This document shows positions 38,067 to 61,169 of a stretch of 64,000 bases of DNA, piece by piece (the first letter of the stretch is position 1; every line of letters starts with the position of its first letter). The stretch is from Nitrospirota bacterium (GTDB lineage: Bacteria; Nitrospirota; UBA9217), in the NCBI GenBank assembly GCA_963751455.1, contig CAVVUN010000008.1, forward strand, positions 192,001 to 256,000. Reading direction: 5' to 3'. The translations under genes were made by a program, and so were the position numbers. The notes beneath the pieces are model-generated. The model saw nothing but the letters and a program-made list of their open reading frames with translations, had not been told where the DNA came from and ran no database searches.

Positions 38067-38082
38067 TGGCACGCAAGTTGAA
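38067..38082 (+). promoter_or_regulatory. sigma54-type promoter (variant -12)
   Basis: TGGCACGCAAGTTGAA. Confidence 0.6.
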
Positions 38083-38119
38083 GTAGCAACAGTATCAAGC
38101 AGAAAGGAGGAAACAGGCT

Positions 38120-38290
38120 ATGAAGACCTTACTGAGGAAGTTCGAAAAAATGATGGCTGCAGCTGCCTTCGCAGAAGAAGGTTTGTTCGATGCTGCAAGG
38201 CAGATCATGAACGAAGACCGGATCAGGAAGAGCGACAGGCCCTCGGACCATTTAAGGCCGACCGCCAGGAAACAGATGCGTGCCGATTAA
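38120..38290 (+). CDS. 56-aa FAE-motif protein (MKTLLRKFEKMMAAAAFAEEGLFDAARQIMNEDR...)
   Basis: AAGGAGG RBS; motif shared with three other ORFs; absent from the ORF track. Confidence 0.8.
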   Translation: MKTLLRKFEKMMAAAAFAEEGLFDAARQIMNEDRIRKSDRPSDHLRPTARKQMRAD

Positions 38291-38329
38291 CGGCGGCCAT
38301 CTCTCTGATTGGAAATGCGGGTGAATCTC

Positions 38330-38833
38330 ATGGAAACAGGCAAGCTCAGGAAAATGATAAAAAAAGTTGAAGACATGCTCGCTGCCGTTTCATTTGCGGA
38401 AGAAGGAGAGAGCGAAACGGCCCGGTCCCTGATGAAGGACGGGCGGAGAGTACTCCTGGCGCTCAAGCAGGGACGGATCGATCCCGCGACCGTAAAGTAC
38501 GCAGTAAACACATCAAAAAGGATCCGGGCCGAACTCGACATTCTGTACATAGGTTCGCAGGAAAAGAGCGAGGTTGAGGACCCCGGTTTGGTGGAACTCC
38601 GGTCTGCTCTTTCATGCGAGGGCATTAAATACCGGCTCATACGAAAAACGGGCTGCCTGAAAAAGGCGGTCATAGACTACACGAACACTGAAAAAGAAAT
38701 CCTGTTCGCTGTGGTGGAGTCGGTGAACAGCGTGGACGCGGATTGCAGCACGAAGGAAGAAGCCAGGATTTCCGAATTGTGGCAGAAGCTCAAATGCCCG
38801 CTCGTGGTGGTGATGGATGAGGCAGGAGCATAA
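38330..38833 (+). CDS. FAE-motif + degenerate USP-like protein
   Basis: 'VEDMLAAVSFAEEGESETARSLM' then 'RRVLLAL..LKCPLVVV'. Confidence 0.75.
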   Translation: METGKLRKMIKKVEDMLAAVSFAEEGESETARSLMKDGRRVLLALKQGRIDPATVKYAVNTSKRIRAELDILYIGSQEKSEVEDPGLVELRSALSCEGIKYRLIRKTGCLKKAVIDYTNTEKEILFAVVESVNSVDADCSTKEEARISELWQKLKCPLVVVMDEAGA

Positions 38834-38896
38834 CTATAGTGCGAATTTCAAATGGCAAATTGTAAATTAAAAATTGTCTGAAGAGGAGGAAGTATC

Positions 38897-39145
38897 ATGG
38901 CAAGCATTGCAAAGAAAAAGCCGGTCGGCGCGATGATCGTTATGGGCATCATTTCCATAGCGCTTTACGCAGCCCTCCTGCTGAAGCAGGACCAGATAAA
39001 CAGCATTTTCGGAAAGGGCGGATGGTATGCTTTTTTGCCCATTATAACAGCTTTTGTTTTCTCTTATTTTCACGGGGGTTTCACGGGTCATTTTTGGACT
39101 GTACTCGGGGTTGAGGCCGCCAGGAAAAAAAAGGAGGTAAAATAA
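38897..39145 (+). CDS. Small membrane protein associated with TauE
   Basis: Two hydrophobic helices, 'FSYFHGGFTGHFWTVLG'; GAGGAGG RBS. Confidence 0.8.
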   Translation: MASIAKKKPVGAMIVMGIISIALYAALLLKQDQINSIFGKGGWYAFLPIITAFVFSYFHGGFTGHFWTVLGVEAARKKKEVK

Positions 39146-39146
39146 G

Positions 39147-40226
39147 ATGCAGGACATCATGAGCAACTTCATCAATCTTGATGCTATTACCATTCTGTAC
39201 CTGTTCGGCGTCGGATTCGTCGGCGGGCTCGTCAGCGGTTTCATCGGTTCCGGAGGAGCATTCGTTCTTACGCCCGGTATGATGAGCCTCGGTGTTCCCG
39301 GACTGGTTGCCGTTGCAAGCAACATGTGCCACAAGTTCCCGAAGGCGCTGGTCGGCTCGATCAAGCGGGCCAAGTACGGCCAGGTTGACGTGAAAATGGG
39401 CATCGTCCTCGGGATCTCGGCTGAAGCGGGCGTGCTGTACGGCGCGCATATCCAGGAGAAGATCAAAGCCGCTTTCGGCGACGCCGGTTCCAACCTGTAT
39501 GTGAGCGTGGCCTTTGTCGTTATCCTTGCGTTGGTCGGAGGGTTCGTCCTGCGCGATGCCTGGAAAACCTACAAGGCGGGCAACTCCAATGAAGAAGAAA
39601 AAGCAGGCAAGCTGGCCCGCTGGGTCCAGTCCGTCAATATTCCCGGCACCATGGTCTTCTTCAAATGTTTGAATGCCAGGATCTCCGTGCTCTTCACGAT
39701 ACCGCTCGGGTTCGCAACGGGCATGCTGGCAGCCACAATCGCGGTCGGCGGCTTCATCGGAGTTCCGGCCATGATCTATGTCCTCGGCGCGCCCAGTCTC
39801 ATGGCCTCGGCCACGGAGCTGGTAATTGCCTTTGTCATGGGACTCGGCGGTTCCTTCAAATACGCGATGTCCGGCCTGGTCGACATTCGTCTTGCCATGA
39901 TCATCCTTGCCGGTTCGCTTTTCGGTATCCAGCTCGGCGCGATCGGCACCACCTATGTCAAACCTTTCATGATCAAGGTGGTGATGGGCGCGATAATGGT
40001 CATCGTGCTTTTCAGCCGCGGCCTGATGGTCCCGGTCTATCTCTCGCAGCTCGGTCTTATTGAAACACTTGGCGAAGGTACGGTAAAAGCGCTGAAGACC
40101 GTCAGCTTTGCCATCATGATCTTCGCATTGCTTATGGGTGCGTTCATTGTCCTGCGTGCAATGTGGCAGGGCCGCCAGGCGGAGAAATTGCAGCTGGCTA
40201 CGGAAGCCGCGCACGGGAAAGCATAG
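39147..40226 (+). CDS. TauE/SafE (TSUP) family sulfite/sulfoacetate exporter-like transporter
   Basis: 'GLVSGFIGSGGAFVLTPG', second repeat 'ATIAVGGFIGVPAM'. Confidence 0.88.
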   Translation: MQDIMSNFINLDAITILYLFGVGFVGGLVSGFIGSGGAFVLTPGMMSLGVPGLVAVASNMCHKFPKALVGSIKRAKYGQVDVKMGIVLGISAEAGVLYGAHIQEKIKAAFGDAGSNLYVSVAFVVILALVGGFVLRDAWKTYKAGNSNEEEKAGKLARWVQSVNIPGTMVFFKCLNARISVLFTIPLGFATGMLAATIAVGGFIGVPAMIYVLGAPSLMASATELVIAFVMGLGGSFKYAMSGLVDIRLAMIILAGSLFGIQLGAIGTTYVKPFMIKVVMGAIMVIVLFSRGLMVPVYLSQLGLIETLGEGTVKALKTVSFAIMIFALLMGAFIVLRAMWQGRQAEKLQLATEAAHGKA

Positions 40227-40260
40227 AGTATCCTTGTAAAACAACCGACGCTTCGGAATC

Positions 40261-40300
40261 AAGCCGGAACGCGCTCTTACAGAGCGTTCCGGCTTTTTTT
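40261..40300 (+). terminator. Intrinsic terminator
   Basis: AGCCGGAACGC..GCGTTCCGGCT followed by a T-run. Confidence 0.8.
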
Positions 40301-40739
40301 GCTATGGATGAGAAGGCGGTCCAACCGTGACCGTAAATCCAGCAATTCTATCTCGTTTGCATCTTCTGCTGAAACCCGGCCTTCCAACACAGTTGATCCG
40401 CAGATTACAAATTTTAAATGCTGAAGCCGTTGTGTTCACTCAGAAGGCGAAATAGTCAATTCTATCTTCTCCACCCGGCCCATGCGGGCATTCCAGTATT
40501 GTCCCTCAGGACCAGGACGTTCGCACTGACATTGTCACCTGCTTGCCGCATCCCGCCTCTATTCCTCACACTCCGCGGTCTTCGCTCCGGTTGTTAATCG
40601 AACCGCAAGGCGCTTCTGATAGCTGCTTCGGCGCCCGTAAAATCAACGCGGCTGTGGTAACAAATAACGTGAAAGGCTTTCAGCCTTTACTCCATTTCGC
40701 TCACTACGTCCCGGAAATGTTTCCGGTCGGCGGGAATTC

Positions 40740-41162
40740 TTATTCGGGGTAGACCATGAGGCCGAGACTTCTGAAGTCATTGTCAAAGGACAGACAGGGA
40801 AGGTTATCGAGAAGATTTGTAATTATCACGAAAGAGAGGGCATCACAGTAAGAAAGCTTTTTATCTTTCGACAGCTTTATGAAGATTTGTTCCGCGGCTG
40901 ATCGGACTGAATCGTCATACCGTACGATAGCAAGAGACGGTTTTATTATGTCCAGGAACTGAACCGCGGTCTTGTAGCCGGCCCGATAGCGAAGAAGCGT
41001 GACGGTTTCGCTGACAATGTCCCACGTCGTATACATCGTCGCCTTTTCTTCCACGCAACGGGCGAGGACGTCCCCTGCCCTGTCGTAGTTCGAGTCGCCG
41101 GGATAGAGCGAAGCGAAAAAGAATGACGTGTCGCAAAAAGCGGCGTTCCGTGGAAAGATCAC
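40740..41162 (-). CDS. vapC: PIN-domain (VapC-like) toxin
   Basis: 'FCDTSFF', 'VSET', 'SYCDALS', 'LSFDNDF'. Confidence 0.85.
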   Translation of the reverse strand: MIFPRNAAFCDTSFFFASLYPGDSNYDRAGDVLARCVEEKATMYTTWDIVSETVTLLRYRAGYKTAVQFLDIIKPSLAIVRYDDSVRSAAEQIFIKLSKDKKLSYCDALSFVIITNLLDNLPCLSFDNDFRSLGLMVYPE

Positions 41163-41428
41163 GATCGGTCCTCGGCAGCGTACAGGTGGTCCTTGATATT
41201 TTCCGAGATCGGATATTTTTTAACTTTGCCCTTTGGCGCGGTCCGCTTCCGTAATGCAAGAAGTTTCTTCGCGGCTTCTCCCGGTTTCACCCGGGGAGAC
41301 GTTTTGATTTCCGCAACGACTTCATCGTGCACGGTCACCTGATACACTGTATCGGGCGACTCTCTCAGCTTTTTTATGATGCCCGGCAATCGTTTTCGCG
41401 CTTCAGATATCGATATGGTTGTTTTCAC
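41159..41428 (-). CDS. Phd/YefM-like antitoxin
   Basis: 'TISISEARKRLPGII..VT'; overlaps the toxin start; upstream TGTACA-N3-TGTACA at 41454-41468. Confidence 0.8.
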   Translation of the reverse strand: MKTTISISEARKRLPGIIKKLRESPDTVYQVTVHDEVVAEIKTSPRVKPGEAAKKLLALRKRTAPKGKVKKYPISENIKDHLYAAEDRS

Positions 41429-41627
41429 GAGAAAACTCCTTGGTGAATCAAATTGTACAAATTGTACATATTTTACCACCGAGTTGCTCAATTGTCATCA
41501 GGAATTAATCCGGCCTCTTCTTCAACGTCTCCTGAAGTTTTGAGAAATTAAATTGACTTGACGAATTACTTAACGTATACTTTACGAACAGAAAGGACTC
41601 GTAACAGAATGGAGTTGTGTACACGTC

Positions 41628-42638
41628 ATGGGGTACTTGCCGAAATACAGGATTACTCCGCGTTTAGCGGGACTGCTTGAGAAGATCGCCGAGCTGCGGA
41701 CCAGGATAGAAGTTTCTCCCCTGTCGGTCGAGTGGAGGCCTCGTCTCGAGCGGGACGCATTTACGCGGCTTGCTCACACTTCGACGGCAATTGAAGGCAA
41801 TCCCTTAACGCTGAGAGACGTGGAAATCCTTGCGCAGGGAGGCGACCTCCCGATGGTCCAGCGTCGCTTTAAGAACGAGGTTCTGAACTATCTTGCCGCA
41901 CTCCGGTATATTACCGATCATTCCGGGAAGCGACTGCTGACCGTGAAGGACGTTCTTACGCTGCACAAGATAGTGGGCAGAGATGCGCTCGAACGGGAAC
42001 CGATTGGCGCGTTTCGAGACTATCAGGTGGTCATCCGGCAGCACAAACCGCCTAAGCATCAGGACGTCGCCCGCCTGGTCACCGAGCTTATGGATTGGCT
42101 TAATACGAAAGCCCCTGATCTCCCGGCTGTCATATCTTCGGCAATCCTGCATTACCAGTTTGAGTATATTCATCCGTTCGGTGACGGGAACGGAAGGGTC
42201 GGCAGGCTTCTTTCCACGTGGGAACTCTACCGCAGGAAGATCGACACGTATCACATCTTCTCGATAGACGAGGTTTACTGGGAAAATCGTGAGAATTACT
42301 TCACCGCACTCCGGTCAGTTCAGGAGGCCGGTCGCGACCTCACTGCGTGGATCGAATTTGTCGCACATGCCGTTGCAGTTTCACTGGACCAGGCATGGAG
42401 AAGAGTTGAGGTAATCCGGAGTCAAAGAACCGAAAGCCGGGAGCCGCTGATTCTGACGCCGAAACAGGAAAGGCTGCTTATCCTCCTACGACAATCTCCA
42501 CTCGGCATCAATGATATCATGAAGGAACTTCGCGTTACAACGAGAGCAGGCGCACACCATATCATTAAGCCGCTTATCCAGCACAAACTCGTCGTGCGAA
42601 AAGGCGGCCATAAAACAGGAAAATACGTTGTCGCATAG
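41628..42638 (+). CDS. Fic family protein (class II) with C-terminal HTH
   Basis: 'HPFGDGNGRVGR'; N-terminal inhibitory 'STAIEGN'. Confidence 0.9.
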   Translation: MGYLPKYRITPRLAGLLEKIAELRTRIEVSPLSVEWRPRLERDAFTRLAHTSTAIEGNPLTLRDVEILAQGGDLPMVQRRFKNEVLNYLAALRYITDHSGKRLLTVKDVLTLHKIVGRDALEREPIGAFRDYQVVIRQHKPPKHQDVARLVTELMDWLNTKAPDLPAVISSAILHYQFEYIHPFGDGNGRVGRLLSTWELYRRKIDTYHIFSIDEVYWENRENYFTALRSVQEAGRDLTAWIEFVAHAVAVSLDQAWRRVEVIRSQRTESREPLILTPKQERLLILLRQSPLGINDIMKELRVTTRAGAHHIIKPLIQHKLVVRKGGHKTGKYVVA

Positions 42639-42813
42639 GGTTGTCAGGAAGGCAGGGGAGCGATGTGGGGGGCAATTCTTTGATGTTGAACGATGTGAAT
42701 AAATGAAATTTGACTATTTTTAGACATAATGCAAATGATAAGTCCAAGAGTATAGACCTGACCCGAGGACCCCGCAGCGGAATGGGTGCCTGAATTGGCG
42801 CGGGAATACTCAG

Positions 42814-43152
42814 GATGACGTTAGATCGTCCTATTATCTGGAAGATGTCGCAACTGAATTTCATGTTCAAGGACTCGAACTGGATTGGGCGTGTGTAGCA
42901 TGGGATGCCGATTTTCAATTTTCAGGGAATGGATGGGCAAATTGGTCTTTTAAAGGCAATCGCTGGCAGCGAATTAATAAACCTGAAAGGCAAACATATC
43001 AGAAGAACGCTTATCGAGTTCTTTTGACCCGGGCACGGTAAGGAATGATTATTGTCGTGCCTAGGGGTGATGAAGGCGATCCTACTCGCAATCCGATCTT
43101 CTATGAAGAAACGTTTAATTACTTAAAGGGAATCGGAATTTCAATAATATAA
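42814..43152 (+). pseudogene. C-terminal remnant of a DUF2075 (Schlafen-group helicase-like) gene
   Basis: 'DDVRSSYYLEDVATEFHVQGLELDWACVAWDAD..NAYRVLLTRAR*GMII'; stop at 43039-41; no N-terminal part. Confidence 0.75.
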
Positions 43153-43189
43153 CTCAAGCATCTCGGGGCAGGCGATATGAGGTGGTTAG

Positions 43190-43417
43190 ATGAAGACAGA
43201 CGAAAACGTTAGTGACCTCGTCAAAGAATACCGGGATTTTCTACCTAAAAGAGATATTCAATCTTCTGTGGAACTGCTTGTTACTGAACACGAGTGGTCT
43301 CAACCAGCCGCCGAACATTTATTGTGGCTAGCCGAGAAGTGTGGATCATTTATGCTTCGAAACGCTCTGGCTTTATCTCTGGCGCTCGGTATTGATGATG
43401 GAGAATTAATGTTTTGA
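43190..43417 (+). CDS. Hypothetical 75-aa protein
   Basis: GAGGTG RBS; 'GSFMLRNALALSLALGIDDG'. Confidence 0.65.
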   Translation: MKTDENVSDLVKEYRDFLPKRDIQSSVELLVTEHEWSQPAAEHLLWLAEKCGSFMLRNALALSLALGIDDGELMF

Positions 43418-43465
43418 CAAAAAATAAGACGCGGGGCCTTTAAAAACCGACAGGGGGAGACCCGT

Positions 43466-43882
43466 TTAGCCAACCGCAATGTATTTGAAATCGAAAACTT
43501 CGCGGATGAGCTTGAAGTCCTTTTCGTTCCTGGTAACAACGACAGCTCCTGTGCCTCGTGCAGACACTGCGATCAACGTATCTGCAAGAAGCCCCTTTAT
43601 CCGCTCCGGATCGATCTTTTTGTCCCTTCTCAGCTTCATCATGATCTCGCCGCACAGATACCATTGATGTTCGGTCGCGGTAATGATCGTAAAGTTGCGG
43701 GCAATCTGGTCGATCAGCTTTCGCTCCCTTGGATCAAAGGCTCCGGCAAGCAGCTCCATGAGGACCACGGAGCTGAAGGCGATATGGTAATATCGATTCA
43801 GGTTCAGGAACGCTTCCTGAACCGTTTCTTTTCGGAAATGTTCTATAAGGAAGGAAGTGTCGGGAACAGCTCTCGGCTTCAC
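43466..43882 (-). CDS. vapC: PIN-domain (VapC-like) toxin
   Basis: 'PDTSFLI', 'VLMEL', 'ADTLIA', 'TRNEKDF'. Confidence 0.85.
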   Translation of the reverse strand: MKPRAVPDTSFLIEHFRKETVQEAFLNLNRYYHIAFSSVVLMELLAGAFDPRERKLIDQIARNFTIITATEHQWYLCGEIMMKLRRDKKIDPERIKGLLADTLIAVSARGTGAVVVTRNEKDFKLIREVFDFKYIAVG

Positions 43883-44076
43883 GAAAGGCCCTCGAACCTG
43901 AATTTACCCGCCGTCTGCTCGATGAACTTCCGCATCTTTTCCTGATAAATGACTTCTGAAAGCGCTGTTTCAATAGCCTCGGTTTCTGTCTTGGCTCTCA
44001 GGATCTTCTGTGCATTCCGGATCATGGTTTTATCCAGCCGGAAATGCTTGGCGGTCTTTTTTGTTGCTGTCTGCAT
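43879..44076 (-). CDS. vapB: VapB-like ribbon-helix-helix antitoxin
   Basis: 'KHFRLD..AQKILRAKTETEAIETAL'; AAGGAGG RBS; upstream palindrome TGTATATACA. Confidence 0.8.
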   Translation of the reverse strand: MQTATKKTAKHFRLDKTMIRNAQKILRAKTETEAIETALSEVIYQEKMRKFIEQTAGKFRFEGLS

Positions 44077-44430
44077 GGCCCCTCCTTGTTAATTGTATAT
44101 ACATTATATCATTGCGTGGCTACAAGTCAAGGAGTTTGATTCTGAACAACTTTGGGGGACATTGTGTTCCGAGTAGAATTTCTTTTGCCCGTTTCGGCCC
44201 GATAACTTTTGCTGCTTCTTCGAGAATATCCTCTGTCTCGTATGTTGCTGTCCCGCGCCGCTTGGCTTCGGAAAATACATCCTCATCATCGGCCGCGAGC
44301 ACCAGGAGCATCTTAGAGCATCTTAGGGACAGGTCTTGCGGCTTGACAAATATCTTCTTCCGCTCACTTCAACGGCTTAACGACGTGGTGTCTCCAATAT
44401 CATTTAAGCCTCGGACAACTTCATCAATAT

Positions 44431-45461: not shown

Positions 45462-45480
45462 CGGCTCACCTCATCACCAT

Positions 45481-48999: not shown

Positions 49000-49875
49000 T
49001 TACCCTGCAGGAGCGCACTGCTCTCGCCCCGGAGCCGCCCTCACCACCAGCACGCCGCAGCTTGCATGACCAATGACTTTTTCCGTTGAGCTCCCCATCA
49101 GGAGTTTTTTGAGGCCCGTTTTTCCGTACGTTCCCATAACGATCAGATCAACGCCCCGGCCCCCTGCTGTCTCAACGATAGCATTGTGAGACCTGCCGAT
49201 TGGAGTCAATGCTTCTACAGGTATGCCCTCCTTTTGCGCCATTTCAACAACTTGGTCGACATTTGCTCTTGCTTCCGGCAATTCCTGTTCGGAATGTACT
49301 GAGGAGAGCGCAATAATACTGCTTCCGCACCGTTTTGCGATCCCGATTGCCTCCGATGCCGCAGCAGCGCTGTGGCTTGACCCGTCCGTTGCAACCAGGA
49401 TGTTCCTGCATTCAATTTTTGCGGCCCGTGGAACAACAAGGACCTTGCAAGGCGCATGACTGATGACTCTTGCGGCCACACTCCCCATCAACACCTTCAT
49501 CAATCCGCTTCGGCCGCGTCTGCCGATAATTATCATGTCGGCCTTTCTATCAGCGGCCTCATCGACAATAGCCTGGCAAGGCTCTTCCTTGTAATCAAGG
49601 ATACTTTTACAAGTGGAAATGCCCTGTTGGGATGCCCTTGCTTTCACGGACTCAAGGTATTTTGTTGCTTCTTCCTCCTCTTTCTGATAAGCACTGGCCC
49701 CAATGGTCTCGTATTCGGGGTTTGTTTCAAGGACCGACATCACATAGAGTCTGCTTGAACATTTCTTTGAAAAATTTATTGCCTCCCGTACGGCCCCTTC
49801 GCTGAATCCGGAACGATCTGTTGCTAAAAGCAGGTTATCCAGTTTCGACAAAGGACAATATTGTGCAGAATTCAT
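49000..49875 (-). CDS. Tandem universal stress protein
   Basis: Two USP domains: 'GRRGRSG..MGSVA', 'GTYGKTG..MGSST'. Confidence 0.92.
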   Translation of the reverse strand: MNSAQYCPLSKLDNLLLATDRSGFSEGAVREAINFSKKCSSRLYVMSVLETNPEYETIGASAYQKEEEEATKYLESVKARASQQGISTCKSILDYKEEPCQAIVDEAADRKADMIIIGRRGRSGLMKVLMGSVAARVISHAPCKVLVVPRAAKIECRNILVATDGSSHSAAAASEAIGIAKRCGSSIIALSSVHSEQELPEARANVDQVVEMAQKEGIPVEALTPIGRSHNAIVETAGGRGVDLIVMGTYGKTGLKKLLMGSSTEKVIGHASCGVLVVRAAPGREQCAPAG

Positions 49876-50156: not shown

Positions 50157-51731
50157 ATGTCGTTGCAGAAAAAAATAGCCCTCAGTTTTCTGATCAGTTC
50201 TGCCATCATCGCACTCCTGGCTGCTTTTGATTTCCTGAGCTTCAGGGAAATCAAGAAGGAAATCCTCTACCTCGAGATCACGGACACGATCAGCCGGAAA
50301 TCGCTTCAGCTGCGGCGGCACGAAAAGAACTATTTTCTCTATGGTGCCGAAAAGGCCGGGGAAGAAGCCTCCGCCGTACGCTCCTATCTTGTGGAACTAC
50401 AGACGCTCCTTTTGCAGAACCCGAATATTGACCAGACCGACAAACTGCAACTTCGGAGCAGCATCGTTGATTATGAGCGCCGCTTCGGTAACATACAGAT
50501 TGAGGCTATGCGCCTTGCTGCCCTGTTCCAAAAAGTAAAGAAGTCAGATCCGAACAATGCAAAATATTTTGCCGTTGTGGAGTCGACCTTCCTCGAAAGG
50601 CCGTCCCAATCTGCGGATTTCCTGGAGCGCATCTTTTTTCTGCCCCATAATCACGCCCTGGTTGGAGGGCTCCGAAAACTCGATGGAGACATTACCGCTC
50701 TGAGAAAAACCGGCGAGGACATACTGGTCATTTCAAAGGACCTTGACAAGATAGCACGTGAAAAGGCGGAGACGGTGATCCGGGTCTCGCAAACAGCGAT
50801 CCTGATAATATTTCCGCTGTTTTTTGTCATCGGCATCGGATCGCTTTTTTTGATCAGCACCAATATGGCGAAAAGACTCATGCTCCTCATTAAAACGGTC
50901 GAGAAGACAGGGAAGGGGTCGTATCCCCATTTGACTGACACATCCGCCAGGAAAGCGCACGATGAAGTCGGCGTGCTTATCGATAAATTCAACGATATGG
51001 AGGACCAGCTTGCGCTGTGGGAAACGGAGCTCGAGCGCAAGAACAAGGAACTGATGCAGATCAGGAAGCTTGCCGCGATCGGGACCCTCGCATCGGGTGT
51101 GGCCCACGAATTGAATAACCCGCTGAATAATATTTATTTGTCCGCACAGATGCTGTCAAGGGAGGCGGGCGGGGCCTGTTCCAGTGAAGTCAAGGAGGCC
51201 ATAACGGATATCGTCGGCCAGACTGAACGGGTGAAGAGGATCGTGGAAGATCTCCTTGAATTTGCCCGCGGCCGGGAGCCCCAGCTTCGCGAGACGGACC
51301 TTGCGGAGCTGATCAGGAGCGCTTATCGCCGAACGGGCGGCAGCCGAAATACCCAAAAAATCGCGTTCACCCTCAAGTCCCCGCCGGCCCCGCTCATGAT
51401 CCCTCTGGATCAGGGTCAGATGGAGCAGGTATTCAACAACCTGTTTACGAACGCGGTCGATTCGATGGAGGGCCGCGGGGAACTTTCGGTCATTGTAAAA
51501 AAAACAGACGAGGTCGTGGAGATCACCATCTCTGATACGGGTAAGGGCATTCCCGACCAGTCGCTTCACAAGATATTCGAGCCTTTCTTTACCACCAAGG
51601 ACAAGGGCACCGGCCTAGGCCTTGCGATCGTCTATAATATTATCAAAAAACACTATGGCGACATCGGCGTTGAAAGCATCGAAGGAAAGGGCACGACGTT
51701 CAAAATTATGCTTCCTGCAGAGAAGATATGA
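50157..51731 (+). CDS. HAMP sensor histidine kinase
   Basis: 'LQLRRHEKNYFLY', 'GVAHELNNPL', 'GTGLGL'; paralog of 34107-35651. Confidence 0.92.
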   Translation: MSLQKKIALSFLISSAIIALLAAFDFLSFREIKKEILYLEITDTISRKSLQLRRHEKNYFLYGAEKAGEEASAVRSYLVELQTLLLQNPNIDQTDKLQLRSSIVDYERRFGNIQIEAMRLAALFQKVKKSDPNNAKYFAVVESTFLERPSQSADFLERIFFLPHNHALVGGLRKLDGDITALRKTGEDILVISKDLDKIAREKAETVIRVSQTAILIIFPLFFVIGIGSLFLISTNMAKRLMLLIKTVEKTGKGSYPHLTDTSARKAHDEVGVLIDKFNDMEDQLALWETELERKNKELMQIRKLAAIGTLASGVAHELNNPLNNIYLSAQMLSREAGGACSSEVKEAITDIVGQTERVKRIVEDLLEFARGREPQLRETDLAELIRSAYRRTGGSRNTQKIAFTLKSPPAPLMIPLDQGQMEQVFNNLFTNAVDSMEGRGELSVIVKKTDEVVEITISDTGKGIPDQSLHKIFEPFFTTKDKGTGLGLAIVYNIIKKHYGDIGVESIEGKGTTFKIMLPAEKI

Positions 51732-51766
51732 ACAATCGTGTCGCTTAATCCGTCGTGAGGAAATCC

Positions 51767-53098
51767 ATGGCATTCAAAGTTCTTATAGCAGAAGATGAGG
51801 AGATCACGCTGAAGCATCTGGTGAACGCCCTTCAAAAAGAGGGCTATCAGGCAATCGGAACGCGGAACGGCGCTGATGCGCTCGGGGAAATAGATAAGGA
51901 CAACTTCGATCTTTTGATTGCGGACATAAGAATGCCGGGCATGACCGGCATCGAGCTCCTGGAAAAGATTAAGGAGCGGCAGCTCGAGGCTGAAGTAATC
52001 ATCATCACCGGCTACGGCAGCATCGGTTCGGTAGTCACCGCGATGAAAAAAGGGGCCTATGATTATGTGACCAAGCCCTTCAACCTGGACGAACTCCTCA
52101 TCAAGGTCGGGAAGATCCGTGAGCAGAAGGCCCTCAAAAAGGAGAACCTTGCACTCAAGGCGTTTGCCGGCTTGGACAGGAAAGTCCGGATCATTGCCAA
52201 AAGCGAACCCATGAATAATATCCTTTCGGTCATTGAAGGGATGAAGGACGCCGACTGCAACGTGCTCCTGACCGGGGAAACCGGCGTAGGCAAGAGTCTC
52301 CTGGCGAAGATCATTCACTTTACAAGCCGCCGGCAGGAGCGGCCTTTCTTATCGATCAATTGCGCCACCCTTACCGAAGAGCTGCTGGCCAGCGAACTGT
52401 TCGGACATGAAAAGGGCGCCTTCACCGGCGCCGTAAAGACCAAGCAAGGCCTGGTGGAGATAGCGGATACGGGCACACTGTTTCTGGACGAAATCGCGGA
52501 TATGGCGCCCAATCTGCAAGCCAAGCTGCTCAAGGTGATCGAGGAAGGGGAATTTTACCGGGTCGGCGGAACAAGACCGATTAATGTAGACGTGCGTTTT
52601 CTTGCAGCGACGAACCAGAATGTGCGGACCGTCGTTGCAGAAGGGAGGTTCCGGGAGGACCTCTATTACCGCTTGAACATCATGGAGATATTCATCCCGC
52701 CCCTCCGTGACAGGCGCGACGACATCATTCCGCTCTGCAATTATTTTCTCGAGAAGCACCTCCCGAAGTCGCACAAGAAGATCACCGGGTTTACGAAAGA
52801 TGCCGTGCAGGTTTTAATGCATTACAGCTTCCCGGGAAACGTCCGGGAGCTTGAGAACATCATTGAGCGCGCAATCATCATAGAAAAAGGACCGCTCATA
52901 ACGCCCGAAAGCCTGCCCCAGACGATCAAGATGTTCCAGATAGAGACGATCGAGCCGGACAGGGTGAAGACCATCGACGAACTGAACAGGGAGTATGCCG
53001 AGAAGGTCGTCGACCTGTTCGGGGGAAATAAATCCAAGGCAGCCGAGGTTCTCGGCATATCCAGGACCAGCCTCTGGAGGATTCTGAAAGAGGAATAA
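51767..53098 (+). CDS. sigma54-dependent response regulator
   Basis: REC, 'GETGVGKS', 'GAFTGA', HTH. Confidence 0.92.
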   Translation: MAFKVLIAEDEEITLKHLVNALQKEGYQAIGTRNGADALGEIDKDNFDLLIADIRMPGMTGIELLEKIKERQLEAEVIIITGYGSIGSVVTAMKKGAYDYVTKPFNLDELLIKVGKIREQKALKKENLALKAFAGLDRKVRIIAKSEPMNNILSVIEGMKDADCNVLLTGETGVGKSLLAKIIHFTSRRQERPFLSINCATLTEELLASELFGHEKGAFTGAVKTKQGLVEIADTGTLFLDEIADMAPNLQAKLLKVIEEGEFYRVGGTRPINVDVRFLAATNQNVRTVVAEGRFREDLYYRLNIMEIFIPPLRDRRDDIIPLCNYFLEKHLPKSHKKITGFTKDAVQVLMHYSFPGNVRELENIIERAIIIEKGPLITPESLPQTIKMFQIETIEPDRVKTIDELNREYAEKVVDLFGGNKSKAAEVLGISRTSLWRILKEE

Positions 53099-54021: not shown

Positions 54022-54082
54022 GATTATATTATATGAACTTTTTGCTTGAGTGTCAAGCATTATTTTCATATTGAAAAAGATC

Positions 54083-54116
54083 AAAAAAATAGGCTCTTTT
54101 AAACGAAGAGCCTACT
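54083..54116 (-). terminator. Intrinsic terminator of the cargo operon
   Basis: Minus strand TAGGCTCTT..AAGAGCCTA followed by T7. Confidence 0.75.
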
Positions 54117-54125
54117 CCTAACCAC

Positions 54126-54308
54126 CTAAAATAACATTTTGGCAGCTTTGGCTGTTTTTTGACATTGATTTTCGACTGCCTGCCCCCACTGTGAAGGAGT
54201 AGGAAATCCCATATGCGACACTTTTGGGAAAAATCTCTCCACTCCTTTATCGTTGCGATTCACCAATCGTTTTCTTTTCACTTCAATATGTTTTTTTAAT
54301 TTTCTCAT
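54126..54308 (-). CDS. 60-aa basic cargo peptide (MRKLKKHIEVKRKR...)
   Basis: AAGGAG RBS right after the protease stop; terminator follows. Confidence 0.65.
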   Translation of the reverse strand: MRKLKKHIEVKRKRLVNRNDKGVERFFPKVSHMGFPTPSQWGQAVENQCQKTAKAAKMLF

Positions 54309-54327
54309 TATGTGCTCCTTCCCCCTA

Positions 54328-55251
54328 CTACTCAAGATTGGGCGGCGGCGGCGCTCCATAGTTGTCTGTTGCAGACTCTATAATCTTTGAGGCTGTTGTA
54401 CTGACAACATAGTTAAGCCTAACGTAAATTTGCCAAATCAGTTTCCATATTTCAGAATTACTGTCATGCAATTTAATATTCAGGTCGCTTTTCTTTGCCA
54501 AATCATAATAGATTGGGCGTCCATGGGATATCGTTTGTTTAGGATCAAGAAAAGGCCTAATTTTTTGTTTGATCTTCTTTTCACTCCTCTTTTTAAGCAT
54601 ACCACTTTTTAGAGATGTTATTGCAATATTTTCTGAGAGTTTTTGAGCTGATTCAATTCCCCTCAAGTCTCGCGCATCATAACGCGCTAATTGCTGTAAA
54701 TACGGTTCTAGATTCCCCGTGGATTTATTCGCCTTACGAACTAATTCATCGTAACTTTCAAGAATTTCATGTGCAGCCTGATATCTGATCGGTCTTCCCC
54801 GATCATCACGTATTAAAATTTGAGGATCGATAGGACCAAGTTCGGAAGTTTTACTCATCCATATTTCATTCGCTCCCAAGCAAATCATCGTTGCGGCGGA
54901 TTTTGCCATTTTGGGAACAACTACAGTAAATTCATTATTGCTATAACTTCTGCAAATATTAACAACTCGTTCAGCGGCTAAAGCATCTCCTCCAGGACAG
55001 TTTAAAATCAAAACTAATTTTTTACCGTTCAGCGCTGTGTTGCTTAATACTTCTTCAAGCATATCAGCGTCCGTGTCTTCAAGAAGAACGGGAAAAGAAA
55101 AAGACGTGAAAAAAGAAACAATTTTATAATCTTTCAAAAAATTTTCTTCTAACTGTTTGTAAAGATCCTGCCGGGTGTTGTGCCTTTGGTGTACTTCATC
55201 TGCGATATGAGATAACGTATTCAGTCTTGTTTCTTTTGCATGGGTAAGCAT
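54328..55251 (-). CDS. SDH-family (ClpP/crotonase-fold) serine protease, cargo
   Basis: 'LILNCPGGD', 'VPKMAKSAATMICLGA', 'LGPIDPQ', 'SHGRPI'; AT-rich. Confidence 0.85.
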   Translation of the reverse strand: MLTHAKETRLNTLSHIADEVHQRHNTRQDLYKQLEENFLKDYKIVSFFTSFSFPVLLEDTDADMLEEVLSNTALNGKKLVLILNCPGGDALAAERVVNICRSYSNNEFTVVVPKMAKSAATMICLGANEIWMSKTSELGPIDPQILIRDDRGRPIRYQAAHEILESYDELVRKANKSTGNLEPYLQQLARYDARDLRGIESAQKLSENIAITSLKSGMLKKRSEKKIKQKIRPFLDPKQTISHGRPIYYDLAKKSDLNIKLHDSNSEIWKLIWQIYVRLNYVVSTTASKIIESATDNYGAPPPPNLE

Positions 55252-55837: not shown

Positions 55838-55853
55838 TGGCATATGCAATGCA
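55838..55853 (+). promoter_or_regulatory. sigma54 promoter
   Basis: TGGCATATGCAATGCA. Confidence 0.65.
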
Positions 55854-55892
55854 GTATTGATCATTAGATTTAAGTTTTTTGGAGGTCATTTT

Positions 55893-56390
55893 ATGGGAAA
55901 GAGGCAATTGTTGTTCGTCACGTATCGGGATGAAAATCTGGAAGAAGGCGTATCTTACGCAATCGAACTCGCAAAAGCCATGTATGAGGACATAACTTTG
56001 CTCCTCGTCAGAAAGAAAAGCAAGCTCATGGACAAGCTGGAGAACCTTATGACAGCCGTCACCTTTGCGGAGGCAGATGAGCATGACACTGCGCGGCAGA
56101 TCATGGCCGGGTCTCCGGGCGCAGCCGAAGAGTCCCAAAAAAAGATCGAGAAACTGGTACAAAAATGCGCCAACGAAGGCATCGCGGTGAAGGTAGAAGA
56201 CTCTGACCAGGAAGCGGTCTCGGGCATTCGTTCCTATCTGAAGAACCGCACAGGGATCGACAAGGTGGTTCTGAGTCCCGCGATTACCGAGGCCGGCAAT
56301 GTTACGGCTAAAGACCTGAACCGGCTCGTTCGGACCGCGTCGCGGCCGATAGTGACCATGACACGCCAGGCATCTGCGGTCGGAGCATAG
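55893..56390 (+). CDS. USP-like protein with internal FAE motif
   Basis: GGAGG RBS; 'LENLMTAVTFAEADEHDTARQIM'; ends 'SRPIVTM'. Confidence 0.8.
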   Translation: MGKRQLLFVTYRDENLEEGVSYAIELAKAMYEDITLLLVRKKSKLMDKLENLMTAVTFAEADEHDTARQIMAGSPGAAEESQKKIEKLVQKCANEGIAVKVEDSDQEAVSGIRSYLKNRTGIDKVVLSPAITEAGNVTAKDLNRLVRTASRPIVTMTRQASAVGA

Positions 56391-56490: not shown

Positions 56491-57420
56491 GTGATGTACT
56501 TGTATTTACCCGTAGCATTGACCAGCATCAACATCCTGATCCCGGTGGGGCTCGGGCTTGCCGTGGGCCTGCTTTCCGGCCTCTTCGGCGTGGGCGGTGG
56601 TTTTCTTTTGACCCCGCTTCTCATCATGTTCGGCATTCCATCCACAGTGGCGGCGGCAACGGATTCGAACCAGATAGTTGCCGCGTCCACCTCGGGCACC
56701 TATGCCCATTGGAAGGTCGGCAACGTGGACTTTAAGATGGGAATATATCTTCTCGTCGGCGGTTTCATCGGCGGCATCGTGGGTGTCCAGGCAATCAAGC
56801 TGCTCCATGCCATGGGCAACGCCGACTTCGTTATTAAAATGACCTATGTGCTCATGCTGGGCATCGTCGGCGTGTATATGTTCATCGAGAGCCTGCAGAG
56901 CATGCGCAAGAAAAAGGACGGTGCGGATCAGGATGTGAAACCGGAAAAGGAGTCGGCAGTAGGAAAATTTCTGAAGTCCCTGCCTCTCCAGACCCGTTTC
57001 GAGAAATCCGGCGTCTCACATTCCATACTGGTGCCAATCGTCCTGGGCGCTTTCGTGGGCGTGCTTGCCGCCATCATGGGAGTGGGCGGAGGGTTCCTGA
57101 TGGTCCCGGTGATGGTCTACATGCTCAGGATGCCGATGCACGTCGTGGTCGGCACCAGCCTGTTCCAGATCCTGTTCACCTGCATCGAGGTTACGTTCCT
57201 GCAGGCCTATACGAACCATAGCGTCGACTTTCTTCTTGCCGTGCTCCTTCTGATCGGATCGACCTTCGGGGCGCAGGTCGGCACGGTGCTGGGAAGAAAA
57301 CTCAAGGGAGAACAGCTTAAGATCCTTCTCGCAGGGATCGTGCTCGTCGTAACGGTCAAGATTGTATTCGAGCTGACGCTTACCCCGCCGCTGCTTCTCT
57401 CGCAAGTAGGAGGACATTAA
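56491..57420 (+). CDS. TauE/SafE family transporter
   Basis: 'YLYLPVA', 'GLLSGLFGVGGGFLLTP', 'IMGVGGGF'. Confidence 0.92.
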   Translation: MMYLYLPVALTSINILIPVGLGLAVGLLSGLFGVGGGFLLTPLLIMFGIPSTVAAATDSNQIVAASTSGTYAHWKVGNVDFKMGIYLLVGGFIGGIVGVQAIKLLHAMGNADFVIKMTYVLMLGIVGVYMFIESLQSMRKKKDGADQDVKPEKESAVGKFLKSLPLQTRFEKSGVSHSILVPIVLGAFVGVLAAIMGVGGGFLMVPVMVYMLRMPMHVVVGTSLFQILFTCIEVTFLQAYTNHSVDFLLAVLLLIGSTFGAQVGTVLGRKLKGEQLKILLAGIVLVVTVKIVFELTLTPPLLLSQVGGH

Positions 57421-58229
57421 TGAAGACGAAATTCAGCATTCAATATTCAATATTTAAAATTGGGTTGTTTCTTTTTCTTGAATTTTTAATTTTGAATTTT
57501 CAATTCGCCGGTACGGCGTCTGCAATGCTTACTGCGAAAGCCAATCATGATCACATCACCATCGATTTCTTCTATCACGGAAGCAGCGTGAGTATCAAGG
57601 GAGAATCTGACGCTAATGTTGATCTGGTCATCAAAATAACTTCTCCTGAAGGGCATCAGGTCCTGAAGCAGAAAGGCAAGGTTGCAGGTGCGCTGTGGAT
57701 GAATGTCGGGCAGCTCAAATTCGAGAACACCCCGAATTTCTACGGCTTGTACAGCACAAAAAAGATTGAAGATATCCTCACGCCGGAAGAAATGACCCGC
57801 TTCGTGATCGGATATCCCGCGCTCGAAAAGCATGTGGAGATATCTCCGGTCGCAAATGAGCAGGAGAGGGCAAAGTGGTTCGAGGAGTTCGTCAAGTTCA
57901 AGGAAGCCCAGAAGGTGTACGCCTACTCCCCGGGAACGATATCTACTACAACAAAGGCCGATGGCGGGCAAGAATATTATATTATGACTGCCTGGCCTTA
58001 CCAGGCCGCTCCCGGTGATTACCTGGTTTCGGTTTATGCGGTAAAGGACGGTAAGGTCGTGGAACAGGCCGAAGCAAAGGTGAATGTAGAGCAGGTAGGG
58101 CTTGTTAAAACACTCTCGACCCTGGCCAGAAACAACGCTGCCTTCTACGGTATCCTGTCTATCGGCATCGCGCTCTTCGCGGGTTTCGGCGTTGGGCTGG
58201 TGTTCGGAAAAGGTGGAGGTTCGCACTAA
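57420..58229 (+). CDS. TIGR02186-like protein (TauE partner)
   Basis: 'KQKGKVAGALWMN', 'PGDYLV', C-terminal TM; coupled to TauE. Confidence 0.8.
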   Translation: MKTKFSIQYSIFKIGLFLFLEFLILNFQFAGTASAMLTAKANHDHITIDFFYHGSSVSIKGESDANVDLVIKITSPEGHQVLKQKGKVAGALWMNVGQLKFENTPNFYGLYSTKKIEDILTPEEMTRFVIGYPALEKHVEISPVANEQERAKWFEEFVKFKEAQKVYAYSPGTISTTTKADGGQEYYIMTAWPYQAAPGDYLVSVYAVKDGKVVEQAEAKVNVEQVGLVKTLSTLARNNAAFYGILSIGIALFAGFGVGLVFGKGGGSH

Positions 58230-59083
58230 TGTATAAATCGATCGTTGTCGGATATGATGAATCGCTCTCGAGCAAGGCAGCCCTCAGAGAGGCCTCGCTC
58301 CGTATCAAGAAGCACGGGGGCGGCATAGTGCTGGTGCACGCCGTATTTTTTGATCAGGAAGAGTTTGCAATTCTGCCTTCGCAAATGGAAAAACGGTTCG
58401 AGTTCGGGACAAAGGTATGCGTCGAGGCAAAGAAGAACGTCGCGCAGGAGTTCGGCAGCGTCGAATCGTATGTCTGTGAAGGCGAGCCGCCCGAAGTGAT
58501 CGTTGAAACGGCAGAGGGGAAGAAGGCGGACCTGATCGCCTTGGGGACCTACGGCAGGAAGGGACTCAAGCGTCTCCTTATGGGCAGTGTCACGTCCCAG
58601 GTGATCCTCAATGCTCCGTGCGACGTTCTTGTCGTGAAAAAGGAGTGTACTACCTGCGGCGGTTCCTATGTATCGCTCCTCGTCCCTTTTGACGGATCGG
58701 ACGCCAGCAAAAAAGCGCTCGTGCGGGCGTGTGAGCTGTCAAAAAGCGACGGATCGGAGATATCGGTCCTGTACGTTATCCCCCGCTATGAAGAAATGAT
58801 GGACTTCTTCAAGACCGAAATGATAAAGAAAAGCCTCTACGAAGAGGCCGGAAAGATTGCCGAGCAGGCCAAGCAGATAGGCGAGGGACAGGGCGTTCGG
58901 ATCAAGGCGATCGTGCAGGAAGGCCACGCAAGCGACAAGATCCTGGAGATCGCCGACAAGTTCAAGAACGACCTCATCGTCATGGGCACCTATGGATGGC
59001 GCGGCATGGACAAGGCGATGATGGGGAGCACTGCAGAGCGGGTAATCGCCCATGGCACGTGCCCGATATTGATTGTGAAATAG
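58229..59083 (+). CDS. Tandem universal stress protein
   Basis: 'GTYGRKG..MGSVT', 'GTYGWRG..MGSTA'. Confidence 0.92.
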   Translation: MYKSIVVGYDESLSSKAALREASLRIKKHGGGIVLVHAVFFDQEEFAILPSQMEKRFEFGTKVCVEAKKNVAQEFGSVESYVCEGEPPEVIVETAEGKKADLIALGTYGRKGLKRLLMGSVTSQVILNAPCDVLVVKKECTTCGGSYVSLLVPFDGSDASKKALVRACELSKSDGSEISVLYVIPRYEEMMDFFKTEMIKKSLYEEAGKIAEQAKQIGEGQGVRIKAIVQEGHASDKILEIADKFKNDLIVMGTYGWRGMDKAMMGSTAERVIAHGTCPILIVK

Positions 59084-59194
59084 TCCTTAATCAGATGTTA
59101 GCCGCAGATTTCGCAGATGACGCAGATTTTTATTTAAAACATAAGCAAAAAGCGGCGAAATCTGCGTAATATGCGGATAGTGAGGGGCAGCGAC

Positions 59195-59617
59195 ATGAAG
59201 GGTTATAGAAAAGTGCTTATTGCATTGAACGGAAACAAAGGGGTCCTCGAACAGGGCATCAAACTTGCGCGGGACGAGAAAACCTGGATCACGGTTGTTA
59301 AAGTCATACGGCCTTTCGACGGAGACCTGAACCTGACGGGCATCAAGAACCTGAGCGACGTGCTTGACGACGGCGGCAATCGGGCTGTTCTGGACATCAA
59401 CAGGACAGCCGAAGCTGAAGGTGCCCTCGTTAAGACCCGCGTTGAGCAGGGTGATGTCCCGCAACGGATTATCGAGGTCGCCGAAGAAGAACAGTGCGAT
59501 CTGATTATTATGGGCTCCAAAAAGAAGAAGGGCATCCTGAGCAGATTGTTCGGAGACCATATTGTGGAAAAGGTCATAGATCAGGCCACATGCCCGGTAT
59601 ATATAGTTGCTCTCTAA
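59195..59617 (+). CDS. Universal stress protein
   Basis: 'YRKVLIALNG', 'DLIIMG', 'CPVYIV'. Confidence 0.88.
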   Translation: MKGYRKVLIALNGNKGVLEQGIKLARDEKTWITVVKVIRPFDGDLNLTGIKNLSDVLDDGGNRAVLDINRTAEAEGALVKTRVEQGDVPQRIIEVAEEEQCDLIIMGSKKKKGILSRLFGDHIVEKVIDQATCPVYIVAL

Positions 59618-59808
59618 CCATCTTAAATCAAACCTCCCTATTAAAGGGAGCCCTCCCGGTCAACCGCACGGCATAAAACTACTAACTTTAATTATCTTCT
59701 TAAAAACCTGAAGTTCTGATTCCAACTGCAGTAATATCTTGCGCCCCGGGTGCAGTAAATAAACCGCACTCCTCCTTCTAGCGTCTTGAAAATTAAGGCT
59801 GCATGCTC

Positions 59809-59824
59809 TGGCATGGCCCGTGCA
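59809..59824 (+). promoter_or_regulatory. sigma54 promoter
   Basis: TGGCATGGCCCGTGCA; NtrC-like TGCAG-N7-TTGCG near 59727. Confidence 0.55.
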
Positions 59825-59876
59825 ATAGAGGCGACTAGAAAGCAAAACAAATTCAATCCAAAAGGGAGGCACTACT

Positions 59877-60305
59877 ATGAAGATCATGGTTGCGTATGAC
59901 GGCACATTGCAGTCGAAGGAAGCTCTGGTGTACGGAATCGAGAAGGCGCATGAAAAAGGCGGCGAGGTCGTTGCGCTGCATGTATTAAACACCAACATGT
60001 TTATAGACTATGATGTTATGGATGCGGAAACCACGGCACGTAGCGAAGCCGGGCGGTTCGTTGAAGAAGCAAAAGCCTTGATCCGCGAGAAGGGAAAAGG
60101 CGTAAAAGCGAGCTTGTTCAGTACTGAGGGAAATCCTGAAGAGGAAATCGTAAGCTTTGCGAAGGACAAAAAAGCGGATATACTGCTTTGCCCGCCTAGA
60201 TTCAAGGGAATCATCAATAAATACCGGAAAGCATTGGGTGCGTCGGAGCTTGCCCGCGAGGCGGCAAAAATGGACCTCGCTGTGCTGTCGACGAAGACGA
60301 TGTAA
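59877..60305 (+). CDS. Universal stress protein
   Basis: 'KIMVAYDGT', 'EGNPEEEI'. Confidence 0.88.
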   Translation: MKIMVAYDGTLQSKEALVYGIEKAHEKGGEVVALHVLNTNMFIDYDVMDAETTARSEAGRFVEEAKALIREKGKGVKASLFSTEGNPEEEIVSFAKDKKADILLCPPRFKGIINKYRKALGASELAREAAKMDLAVLSTKTM

Positions 60306-60443
60306 TAAAGAAGACTGACCACAAACAGCAGCCAGCCATGGATGAACATGCGGAAGATGAACAACTTCAAACCGGTAGAGAAGCAAAAATGTTCTACTGC
60401 GTTTTTGCGGGCTGATCTGTAATACGATAAATGGAGAACAGCT

Positions 60444-60647
60444 ATGGAATTCGAGCATGCATTTCAACAATCAGGTTTTTTTGTCGCGCTTCAGCTGATG
60501 ATCGTCGGGTCGTTGCTTGCGCCCGCCGTGCTTGGAGGGACGGTGTTGTTGCAGCGATTCGTCAGGATCGCAGCTTCCTCTGTCGTAAGCTTCGGTCCGA
60601 TGGCGATCCTTCTCTATATGCTGTACCGGGTCTCACAGCTGAGTTGA
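60444..60647 (+). CDS. Small two-TM hypothetical protein
   Basis: GGAG RBS, two hydrophobic segments. Confidence 0.55.
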   Translation: MEFEHAFQQSGFFVALQLMIVGSLLAPAVLGGTVLLQRFVRIAASSVVSFGPMAILLYMLYRVSQLS

Positions 60648-60975
60648 CACTGTCTCCCTCAGGCTGGGTTGCTGCGGGATGTCGCGCTATTCCAGTCCCG
60701 ACATATTGTGCGCTGGAGGGCTCCGCCGGAGCATAAGACGGGTTGTTTAAGGTTCGAATTTAGTGAAATCGATCTCGAAGAACGCGCTGCGCTTCTTCGG
60801 GATCTCCTTTTTGCGCACAGGGGCATGGATTGATTTCCATATCGTGCGTAATCGCTGATATGCCGGCAAAGCATGGTCAGTAACCATGAACGTTACCAGA
60901 ACCTGGGCGAGCAGCATATTTCTAATTACGATGGATACATCTGCTTCAAGCATCCGGGGCCTCCTGGCTTCGAGT

Positions 60976-61113
60976 TTATACCTGCTGCATTCGAACCGAA
61001 GTCCCGGAATGGAGTCGCCGTACACTGTAAACGGCAAGCGTTCCATATTCACCGGCTTCAGCAAATGCAACGGTAACCCAGACATCTTCGAACATCATCA
61101 TAAGTTTTTGCAT
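60976..61113 (-). CDS. 45-aa FAE-motif peptide (MQKLMMMFEDVWVTVAFAEAGEYGTL...)
   Basis: GGAGG RBS, own sigma54 promoter, shared motif. Confidence 0.75.
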   Translation of the reverse strand: MQKLMMMFEDVWVTVAFAEAGEYGTLAVYSVRRLHSGTSVRMQQV

Positions 61114-61153
61114 ATGGCCTCCATAGAACGATTTAGATTTCATAGACAAATAG

Positions 61154-61169
61154 AGCAACCAGTGTGCCA
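61154..61169 (-). promoter_or_regulatory. sigma54 promoter
   Basis: Minus strand TGGCACACTGGTTGCT. Confidence 0.7.

Follow-up and report, generated by a model that had tools for sequence, protein, structure and literature searches.

We analysed a 64,000-nucleotide window of a Nitrospirota genome (assembly GCA_963751455.1, contig CAVVUN010000008.1, positions 192,001 to 256,000), in which four open reading frames (ORFs) share a 33-residue motif, AxxFAExGExxxA (hereafter, the FAE motif). A preliminary description of this DNA had located the four ORFs and their motif segments, had credited the two short ones with strong ribosome sites and had placed sigma54-type promoters at 38067, 55838 and 61169 (minus strand). 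All of these were confirmed: the ORFs and segments lie where they were placed, both short ORFs have GGAGG ribosome sites, and the TGGCA-N7-GC/GA sites are present, the one at 38067 with GA rather than GC as its -12 box. The FAE elements, numbered from the first letter of the window, are the following (REC-Lon is a receiver-domain Lon protease encoded nearby).

38067..38082, plus strand: sigma54-type -24/-12 site leading module A, with a non-canonical GA at -12.
38120..38290, plus strand: free FAE peptide A, 56 amino acids (aa), with the motif at aa 1-33 and an Arg-rich tail; 70 homologues; ratio of nonsynonymous to synonymous polymorphism (pN/pS) 0.21.
38120..38218, plus strand: predicted FAE hairpin motif of peptide A, assigned by profile matches.
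38219..38287, plus strand: Arg-rich C-terminal tail of peptide A, assigned by co-occurrence with REC-Lon.
38330..38833, plus strand: USP-fold protein with an N-terminal FAE motif (38345-38443), 167 aa from ATG, without the usual ATP-site glycines.
55838..55853, plus strand: sigma54-type site leading module B.
55893..56390, plus strand: USP-fold protein with an internal FAE motif (56016-56114), 165 aa from ATG.
60976..61113, minus strand: free FAE peptide of 45 aa, second helix degenerate, no Arg tail; pN/pS 0.40 (4 sequences).
61154..61169, minus strand: sigma54-type site ahead of the 45-aa peptide.

The likeness of the four ORFs is beyond chance. When the six-frame source genome was searched with a profile made from 221 motif segments, none of them from this genome, all four window copies were recovered (E = 3e-15, 6e-14, 7e-12 and 5e-6) together with a degenerate two-copy peptide (C6:257812-258165; E = 9e-5), and the reversed genome gave no match at E ≤ 1. 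A profile from the four window segments alone found a fifth copy 1.2 kb past the window end (G000:C8:257160-257360; E = 9e-10, or 2e-12 with the other-genome profile), followed downstream by GntR, a third TauE, a kinase (HKc) and a regulator. A sigma54 activator with a degenerate receiver domain stands immediately upstream of this fifth peptide (L001:1230-2537; L and G numbers denote loci and genomes). Third codon positions of the motif copies agree at only 24-45%, which places the likeness at the protein level and rules out a DNA or RNA element. The consensus is approximately M-x-x-L-x-x-K-h-E-x-x-M-x-A-h-[TAS]-F-A-E-[AE]-G-E-x-[DE]-T-A-x-x-h-h, with A14, F17, A18, E19 and A26 conserved at 93-96%. 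The profile search, which took in short ORFs, found the motif in other genomes and matched no characterised domain, in line with the preliminary description, which had no known function to offer: no Pfam, NCBIfam or PDB sequence match of the motif passed the cut-off, and an ESM Atlas search returned hypothetical clusters only. A signal peptide, suggested by the resemblance of AFA-E to a cleavage site, was ruled out by the charged core and the internal or C-terminal copies, and a Spo0E/CheZ-type phosphatase motif by the absence of the conserved amide.

The shared element had initially been taken for one helix. The common motif is real, but it is modelled as a helix-loop-helix, with the FAE part of both USP-fold proteins unpacked on the fold and at a predicted local distance difference test score (pLDDT) below 50 in AlphaFold models. 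We predict that it forms a TPR/PPR-like helix-turn-helix hairpin. The spacing of small and large residues fits the TPR register (8, 11, 15, 17, 20, 24), tandem copies have a modal period of 34 residues (36 of 139 spacings, range 26-69, in a list biased to multi-copy proteins; the window copies are single), and a three-copy relative matches PPR solenoids in PDB. The best TPR match, TPR_4, reached 26.9 bits, below the curated cut-off of 27, and 2 of 38 single motifs gave weak TPR/PPR matches. The 45-aa peptide lacks most of the second helix. The USP-like fold of the two longer ORFs, with the motif once N-terminal and once internal, was borne out by AlphaFold and Foldseek alike: both are modelled as five-stranded alpha/beta USP folds, and USP structures lead the Foldseek matches of the 167- and 165-aa models (E = 3e-5 and 2e-4, probability 1.0). 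Neither reaches the PF00582 cut-off, which a few relatives do, and the ATP motif of ATP-binding USPs, G-x2-G-x9-G(S/T), is absent from both alignments and present in the neighbouring tandem USPs.

Judging from their codons, the short ORFs are under purifying selection and behave as genes. Over the first 33 codons the pN/pS of the three peptide types was 0.21 (9 sequences), 0.23 (9) and 0.40 (4), against 1.1-2.1 in shifted frames, with pN biased downward because the sequences were picked by a protein profile. The start Met is fixed 16 residues ahead of the Phe, and 70 of 72 candidates proved homologous to the 56-aa peptide, the homologues being labelled Nitrospirota. Of 66 peptide-like ORFs (a few of them cut), 38 have a sigma54 site no more than 200 nt away; on the opposite strand 1 of 66 does. 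The GA -12 box recurs in most HKa-linked Nitrospirota peptide promoters, among them the module A promoters of L053, L057, L073, L082, L120, L121, L186, L197, L199, L213, L214 and L221. One run guessed to be RNA held a lone 151-nt contig identical to 38169-38319 at depth 2, and was not used as evidence.

The motif is widespread. Its profile detected 1,495 representatives at 50% clustering, across many phyla. By genome, it was found in 46 of 151 from Nitrospirota and, in a Desulfobacterota sample, in 34 of 201; one Nitrospirota match (12 bits within a 2,868-aa protein of G126) was treated as chance. A DNA pattern scan gave at least 125 stretches, including records from Magnetococcales, Actinomycetota, Ignavibacteria, Myxococcota and Latescibacterota. 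The fetched loci held 421 non-redundant carriers, i.e., free peptides (n = 179, some multi-copy or cut), USP-like proteins (n = 149; 91 with an N-terminal and 58 with an internal motif), receiver tails (n = 64), TM82 membrane proteins (n = 8), PPDK-like enzymes (n = 4) and 17 not placed in a class. Among 25 full-length PPDK-like proteins the motif is inserted in one loop in two and at another site in a third; the insertion is missing from most homologues and uses two different sites, and was thus gained more than once. On these sequence grounds the FAE motif is a portable protein-level tag with six architectures.

Several other arrangements were observed. A receiver-domain protein with an N-terminal motif (L350:9826-10500) adds one more architecture. 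PPDK-like enzymes with ATP-grasp and His domains and an unknown C-terminal domain recur in the FAE modules (L033:3073-5685, L052:16001-18550 and 23 more) and may form a second phosphotransfer route. A degenerate two-copy FAE peptide with a Cys-containing tail stands ahead of chrB (L002:9812-10072, minus strand; L267:8508-8792), in L267 also ahead of chrA and divergent from a kinase and sigma54 regulator. Sensor-less degenerate kinase-like proteins of ~230 aa, which we take to be ChpT-like, lie just 5' of receiver-tail units (L296:8472-9170, L298:8203-8901, L302:1418-2116). A two-copy peptide in L092 belongs to a 2.9-kb contig that carries an archaeal bin label and is probably mis-binned.

The motif is very probably a docking tag, and its possible partners are encoded around it.

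32409..33803, minus strand: sigma54 response regulator RR54a.
34107..35651, minus strand: sensor kinase HKa (HAMP-DHp-CA).
35782..37959, minus strand: REC-Lon, without an N-terminal substrate domain; a receiver domain precedes the AAA+ module as an insertion, and the real start codon probably lies past the first TTG.
38897..39145, plus strand: TM82, an 82-aa two-helix membrane protein whose relatives bear the FAE motif, the Arg tail or a fused USP fold.
39147..40226, plus strand: TauE/TSUP anion transporter A (TauE_A; PF01925).
49000..49875, minus strand: tandem canonical USP.
50157..51731, plus strand: sensor kinase HKb; the motif is not kept intact when HKb is alone.
51755..53098, plus strand: sigma54 response regulator RR54b.
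56491..59617, plus strand: TauE B (TauE_B), a TIGR02186-like membrane protein, a tandem USP and a single USP.

The source genome has two further Lon genes besides REC-Lon. Foreign-looking blocks at 40300-48700 and 53185-55251 split the modules, with genes for Fic, DUF7309, HigA/IrrE-like proteins and exonuclease III, and with an IS1-like transposase and an SDH-type serine protease.

The preliminary description had offered the TauE complex, USP, a kinase or the Lon as partners of a portable, uncharacterised peptide element linked to these modules. That characterisation stands; among the partners REC-Lon, TauE and USP were weakened and the kinase survives. Its proposal that free peptides and fused copies vie for one docking partner is plausible. 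The 37 long loci (≥14 kb) held a kinase in 35, TauE or SLC13/CitMHS in 34, a sigma54 activator in 32, a canonical USP in 25 (missing from 12) and REC-Lon in 10. Across the 151 Nitrospirota genomes, all those with HKa (32, plus 2 by profile) or HKc (16) are motif-positive. REC-Lon occurs in 21 genomes, against 45 with the motif, and TauE_A in 41, five of them without it; TauE_A, TM82 and USP are present without the motif in 5 genomes. The neighbouring transporter varies in fold (TauE, SLC13/CitMHS, SulP or ChrA). The pseudo-receiver activator EBP, in only 27 of the 151 genomes and several times without the motif, was rejected as a partner.

The motif erodes where the kinase is lost though the sigma54 regulator and transporter stay, making the kinase the likeliest partner. 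Using USP bodies as queries, 59 loci were scored. Where HKa is missing the motif is erased (G106, G039, G057) or weakened (G079, G087, G095, G107, G143). In the closed genome G106, unrelated genes occupy the place of the kinase, RR54a, TM82, TauE_A, USP and HKb are kept, and a USP-like protein that is otherwise intact has had its motif erased, a pattern repeated in G039; G057 keeps TauE_B at 91% identity with the motif erased. Internal motifs score 5.9-32.2 bits in seven HKa-less genomes versus a mean of 48.4 bits in 20 HKa genomes, and the intact peptides of HKa-less G021 and G119 adjoin HKc. The eroded genomes are kin, and we count about four independent erosions. In two HKa-less genomes, internal-motif USP-like genes are duplicated and broken around an inserted 504-aa membrane gene (L182:9561-13374, L184:9114-12473).

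Several observations weigh against the kinase as partner. The low-end scores overlap, HKa-positive G024 reaching 25.7 bits. HKa is present in 39 of the 201 Desulfobacterota genomes and the motif in 23 of those 39; the 16 HKa loci missed by the profile comprise 14 without the motif and 2 with weak motifs, and 6 of the 14 hold the full REC-Lon/TauE module. Six loci among the 16 have a USP-like domain fused to TM82. The 11 motif-positive Desulfobacterota genomes without HKa have receiver-tail modules with other kinases (n = 10) or a divergent HKa (n = 1); the ten receiver-tail genomes, and likewise G074, imply either a broader class of kinases as partner or a different partner altogether. No kinase surface residues separate motif-positive from motif-negative loci, and a motif whose binding partner lies further downstream could come under relaxed selection once the kinase is gone. 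Signature residues of the regulator, tried as a partner signal, follow clade rather than motif. It seems, from these distributions, that the motif needs a kinase of this broad class and that the kinase does not need the motif. We give the sensor kinase an even chance of being the docking partner.

The free peptide also has a second part that had gone unremarked, the Arg-rich C-terminal tail. With a tail scored as at least three Arg in the last 16 residues, it was found in 43 of 43 non-redundant kinase loci with REC-Lon versus 2 of 25 without, a count that excludes 8 duplicates and 5 loci too short to judge the absence of Lon. Loci fetched after the rule was set gave 15 of 15 versus 1 of 3. Both exceptions among the 25 have REC-Lon elsewhere in the genome. 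Neither the tails of USP-like proteins (0-2 vs 0-3 Arg) nor GC content (0.49 vs 0.48) differed with and without REC-Lon. TM82 and motif-less USP-TM82 fusions bear a similar tail only in REC-Lon loci. Lon had been suggested as a partner of the FAE helix itself; REC-Lon is tied instead to this separate tail. Peptides of receiver-tail modules have a third conserved tail, GL-x-G-hydrophobic, often with YG and sometimes duplicated (L056, L061, L126, L130, L296, L302, L306, L307, L320, L328, L330, L334, L352, L354).

On the other side, independent events are few: 11 changes of Lon state are placed on the kinase tree, of the 7 independent tail/Lon pairs 5 agree and none oppose (p = 0.0625), and the Arg cut-off was chosen after a first look at the tails. 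In addition, canonical Lon disfavours a terminal Asp and its substrates are read by the N-domain (PMC11986505), while the 56-aa peptide ends in Asp and REC-Lon has no N-domain. The tails do not fit the Lon C-terminal degron class of terminal His after two hydrophobics, known as SulA/x-L/I-L/I/V-H (PMC11986505), being Arg-rich and often ending in Ala, Asp or Arg. On the co-occurrence evidence, the tail is most probably functionally tied to REC-Lon, and we lean slightly towards its meaning degradation.

We tentatively suggest, at somewhat less than even odds, that the hairpin docks on the cytoplasmic part of the kinase and that the free peptide is a feedback brake removed by REC-Lon via the Arg tail. 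HKa would phosphorylate RR54a and the near-identical receiver of REC-Lon, and phosphorylated RR54a would turn on the peptide/USP-like/TM82/TauE unit. The peptide and USP-like protein would then use the hairpin to dock on the kinase, damping its activity; an inhibitory sign is marginally favoured. During the signal, phosphorylated REC-Lon would read the tail and clear the brake, producing a switch or timer, and other inputs would reach the same site through the receiver, USP-like, PPDK-like and membrane proteins to which the hairpin is fused. In Desulfovibrio vulgaris, mutants of DVU3303, DVU3304 and DVU3305 have one common phenotype with cofitness >0.9, and in chlorate the loss of Lon, kinase or regulator aids growth and loss of the TauE gene harms it (PMC10102598). 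In our own reading, the common Lon/kinase/regulator phenotype and the opposite TauE effect fit a target unit that restrains the kinase and a positive role for Lon. A broader version, possible if rather unlikely, is a general addressing tag in which a repeatedly gained hairpin routes phosphorylation, nucleotide and transporter inputs to one kinase site and a Lon, switched on by phosphorylation from that kinase and reading its own Arg-rich tag, determines how long the free copy persists as a brake.

Two alternatives survive best, each with only a small chance of being right. The two-part peptide may be an adaptor that replaces the N-domain of REC-Lon, its tail binding Lon and its hairpin delivering a substrate. 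This would account for a Lon without an N-terminal substrate domain, for the tracking of REC-Lon by the tail and for a terminal Asp that makes a poor canonical degron (PMC11986505). However, delivery of the kinase or regulator as substrate would give Lon mutants a phenotype opposite to that of kinase or regulator mutants, and in D. vulgaris the mutants act alike (PMC10102598); moreover, the motif is intact in many genomes without REC-Lon and the tail also occurs on motif-less membrane proteins. Alternatively, hairpins of different proteins may stack into a TPR/PPR-like solenoid that assembles the module without a separate receptor, as the 34-residue modal period and the PPR-matching three-copy protein would suggest; in some loci the motif is present on both TM82 and the USP-like protein, and it is missing where the two are fused. 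Such stacking is hard to reconcile with module C, where lone peptides have no fused carrier nearby, with the missing second helix of the 45-aa peptide, with spacings of 26 to 69, and with an erosion that tracks kinase loss.

Binding of the motif to the sigma54 regulator or a receiver domain, akin to PspA-like control of activators, is only slightly less likely than these two: an activator is in 32 of the 37 long loci and peptides head the activated unit, but G106 and G039, where the motif is erased, still encode RR54a, the signature residues follow clade, and some receiver-tail loci have no activator nearby. Docking on the transporter or TM82, with direct control of transport as by TeaD for TeaABC, is improbable. 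An anion transporter is in 34 of the 37 long loci, TeaD is a top fold match of both USP-like proteins, and a USP-TM82 fusion replaces the motif; the neighbouring transporters, however, have unrelated folds (TauE, SLC13/CitMHS, SulP, ChrA), TauE_A and TM82 persist in 5 motif-less genomes, and the motif is erased beside the 91%-identical TauE_B of G057. That the FAE helix itself is a degron or docking site for REC-Lon is very improbable. The two are adjacent in the window and in D. vulgaris, but of 151 genomes only 21 have REC-Lon, as do 10 of the 37 long loci, and N-terminal carriers do not score lower on the motif where REC-Lon is absent (mean 45.0 vs 41.5 bits). There is equally little to recommend the short ORFs as untranslated relics of USP-like gene duplications, as broken USP-like copies do occur in G087 and G095 but the pN/pS values against shifted frames, the fixed start Met, the ribosome sites, the 70 full-length homologues and an annotated 59-aa gene at the same place in D. 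vulgaris all oppose it.

Returning to the kinase brake proposed above, we compared its parts with known systems. The literature we searched, which reached few subscription papers, yielded no description of the motif or tail. TPR/PPR repeats differ from the FAE motif, which is usually a single unit below Pfam cut-offs with a near-invariant FAE and variable linkers. TeaD and the KdpD USP domain, which sit with a transporter or kinase, share the fold of the USP-like carriers and are among their top Foldseek matches, but the carriers miss G-x2-G-x9-G(S/T) and add the FAE insert. Sda, which inhibits KinA/KinB of Bacillus, is a 46-aa helical hairpin that binds DHp via a hydrophobic face (PMC10730256); it has no Pfam or PDB sequence match to the motif, is regulated otherwise and, in the available part of that paper, is not described as a fused module. 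FixT of Caulobacter is induced by its own two-component system, inhibits the FixL kinase and is cleared by Lon (PMC7078487); it is a receiver domain degraded by housekeeping Lon, whereas here a 56-aa peptide is paired with a dedicated Lon that has its own receiver. We regard Sda and FixT as working analogues of the proposed brake, not family members.

The locus type itself is published, as the D. vulgaris DVU3298-DVU3305 three-component system (Rajeev 2011 PMC3333781; Kazakov 2015 PMC4641369; Trotter 2023 PMC10102598). There, as in the window, a kinase, a sigma54 regulator and a receiver-Lon are divergent from small hypothetical, USP-type and TauE genes. DVU3302, DVU3301, DVU3300 and DVU3299 (180, 543, 294 and 1071 nt; PMC3333781) match the peptide, USP-like, TM82 and TauE genes in order and size, on which the presumed orthology rests. 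The available portions of this work describe no motif, tail or role for DVU3302-DVU3300. The docking-type motif is real, widespread and apparently undescribed, and it is joined by a second, Lon-linked tag, in a system that has been reported but not explained. Reuse of one short linear docking tag among two-component proteins, as may be the case here, is uncommon in bacteria. For ~1,500 clusters of hypothetical proteins from sulfate reducers, Nitrospirota and other anaerobes there is now a role that can be tested, and for the receiver-domain Lon, whose targets the available parts of the 2011 and 2023 papers leave unnamed, a candidate substrate and tag. Because D. vulgaris has both the matching locus and a transposon library with DVU3302 insertions, the model can be tested there at once.

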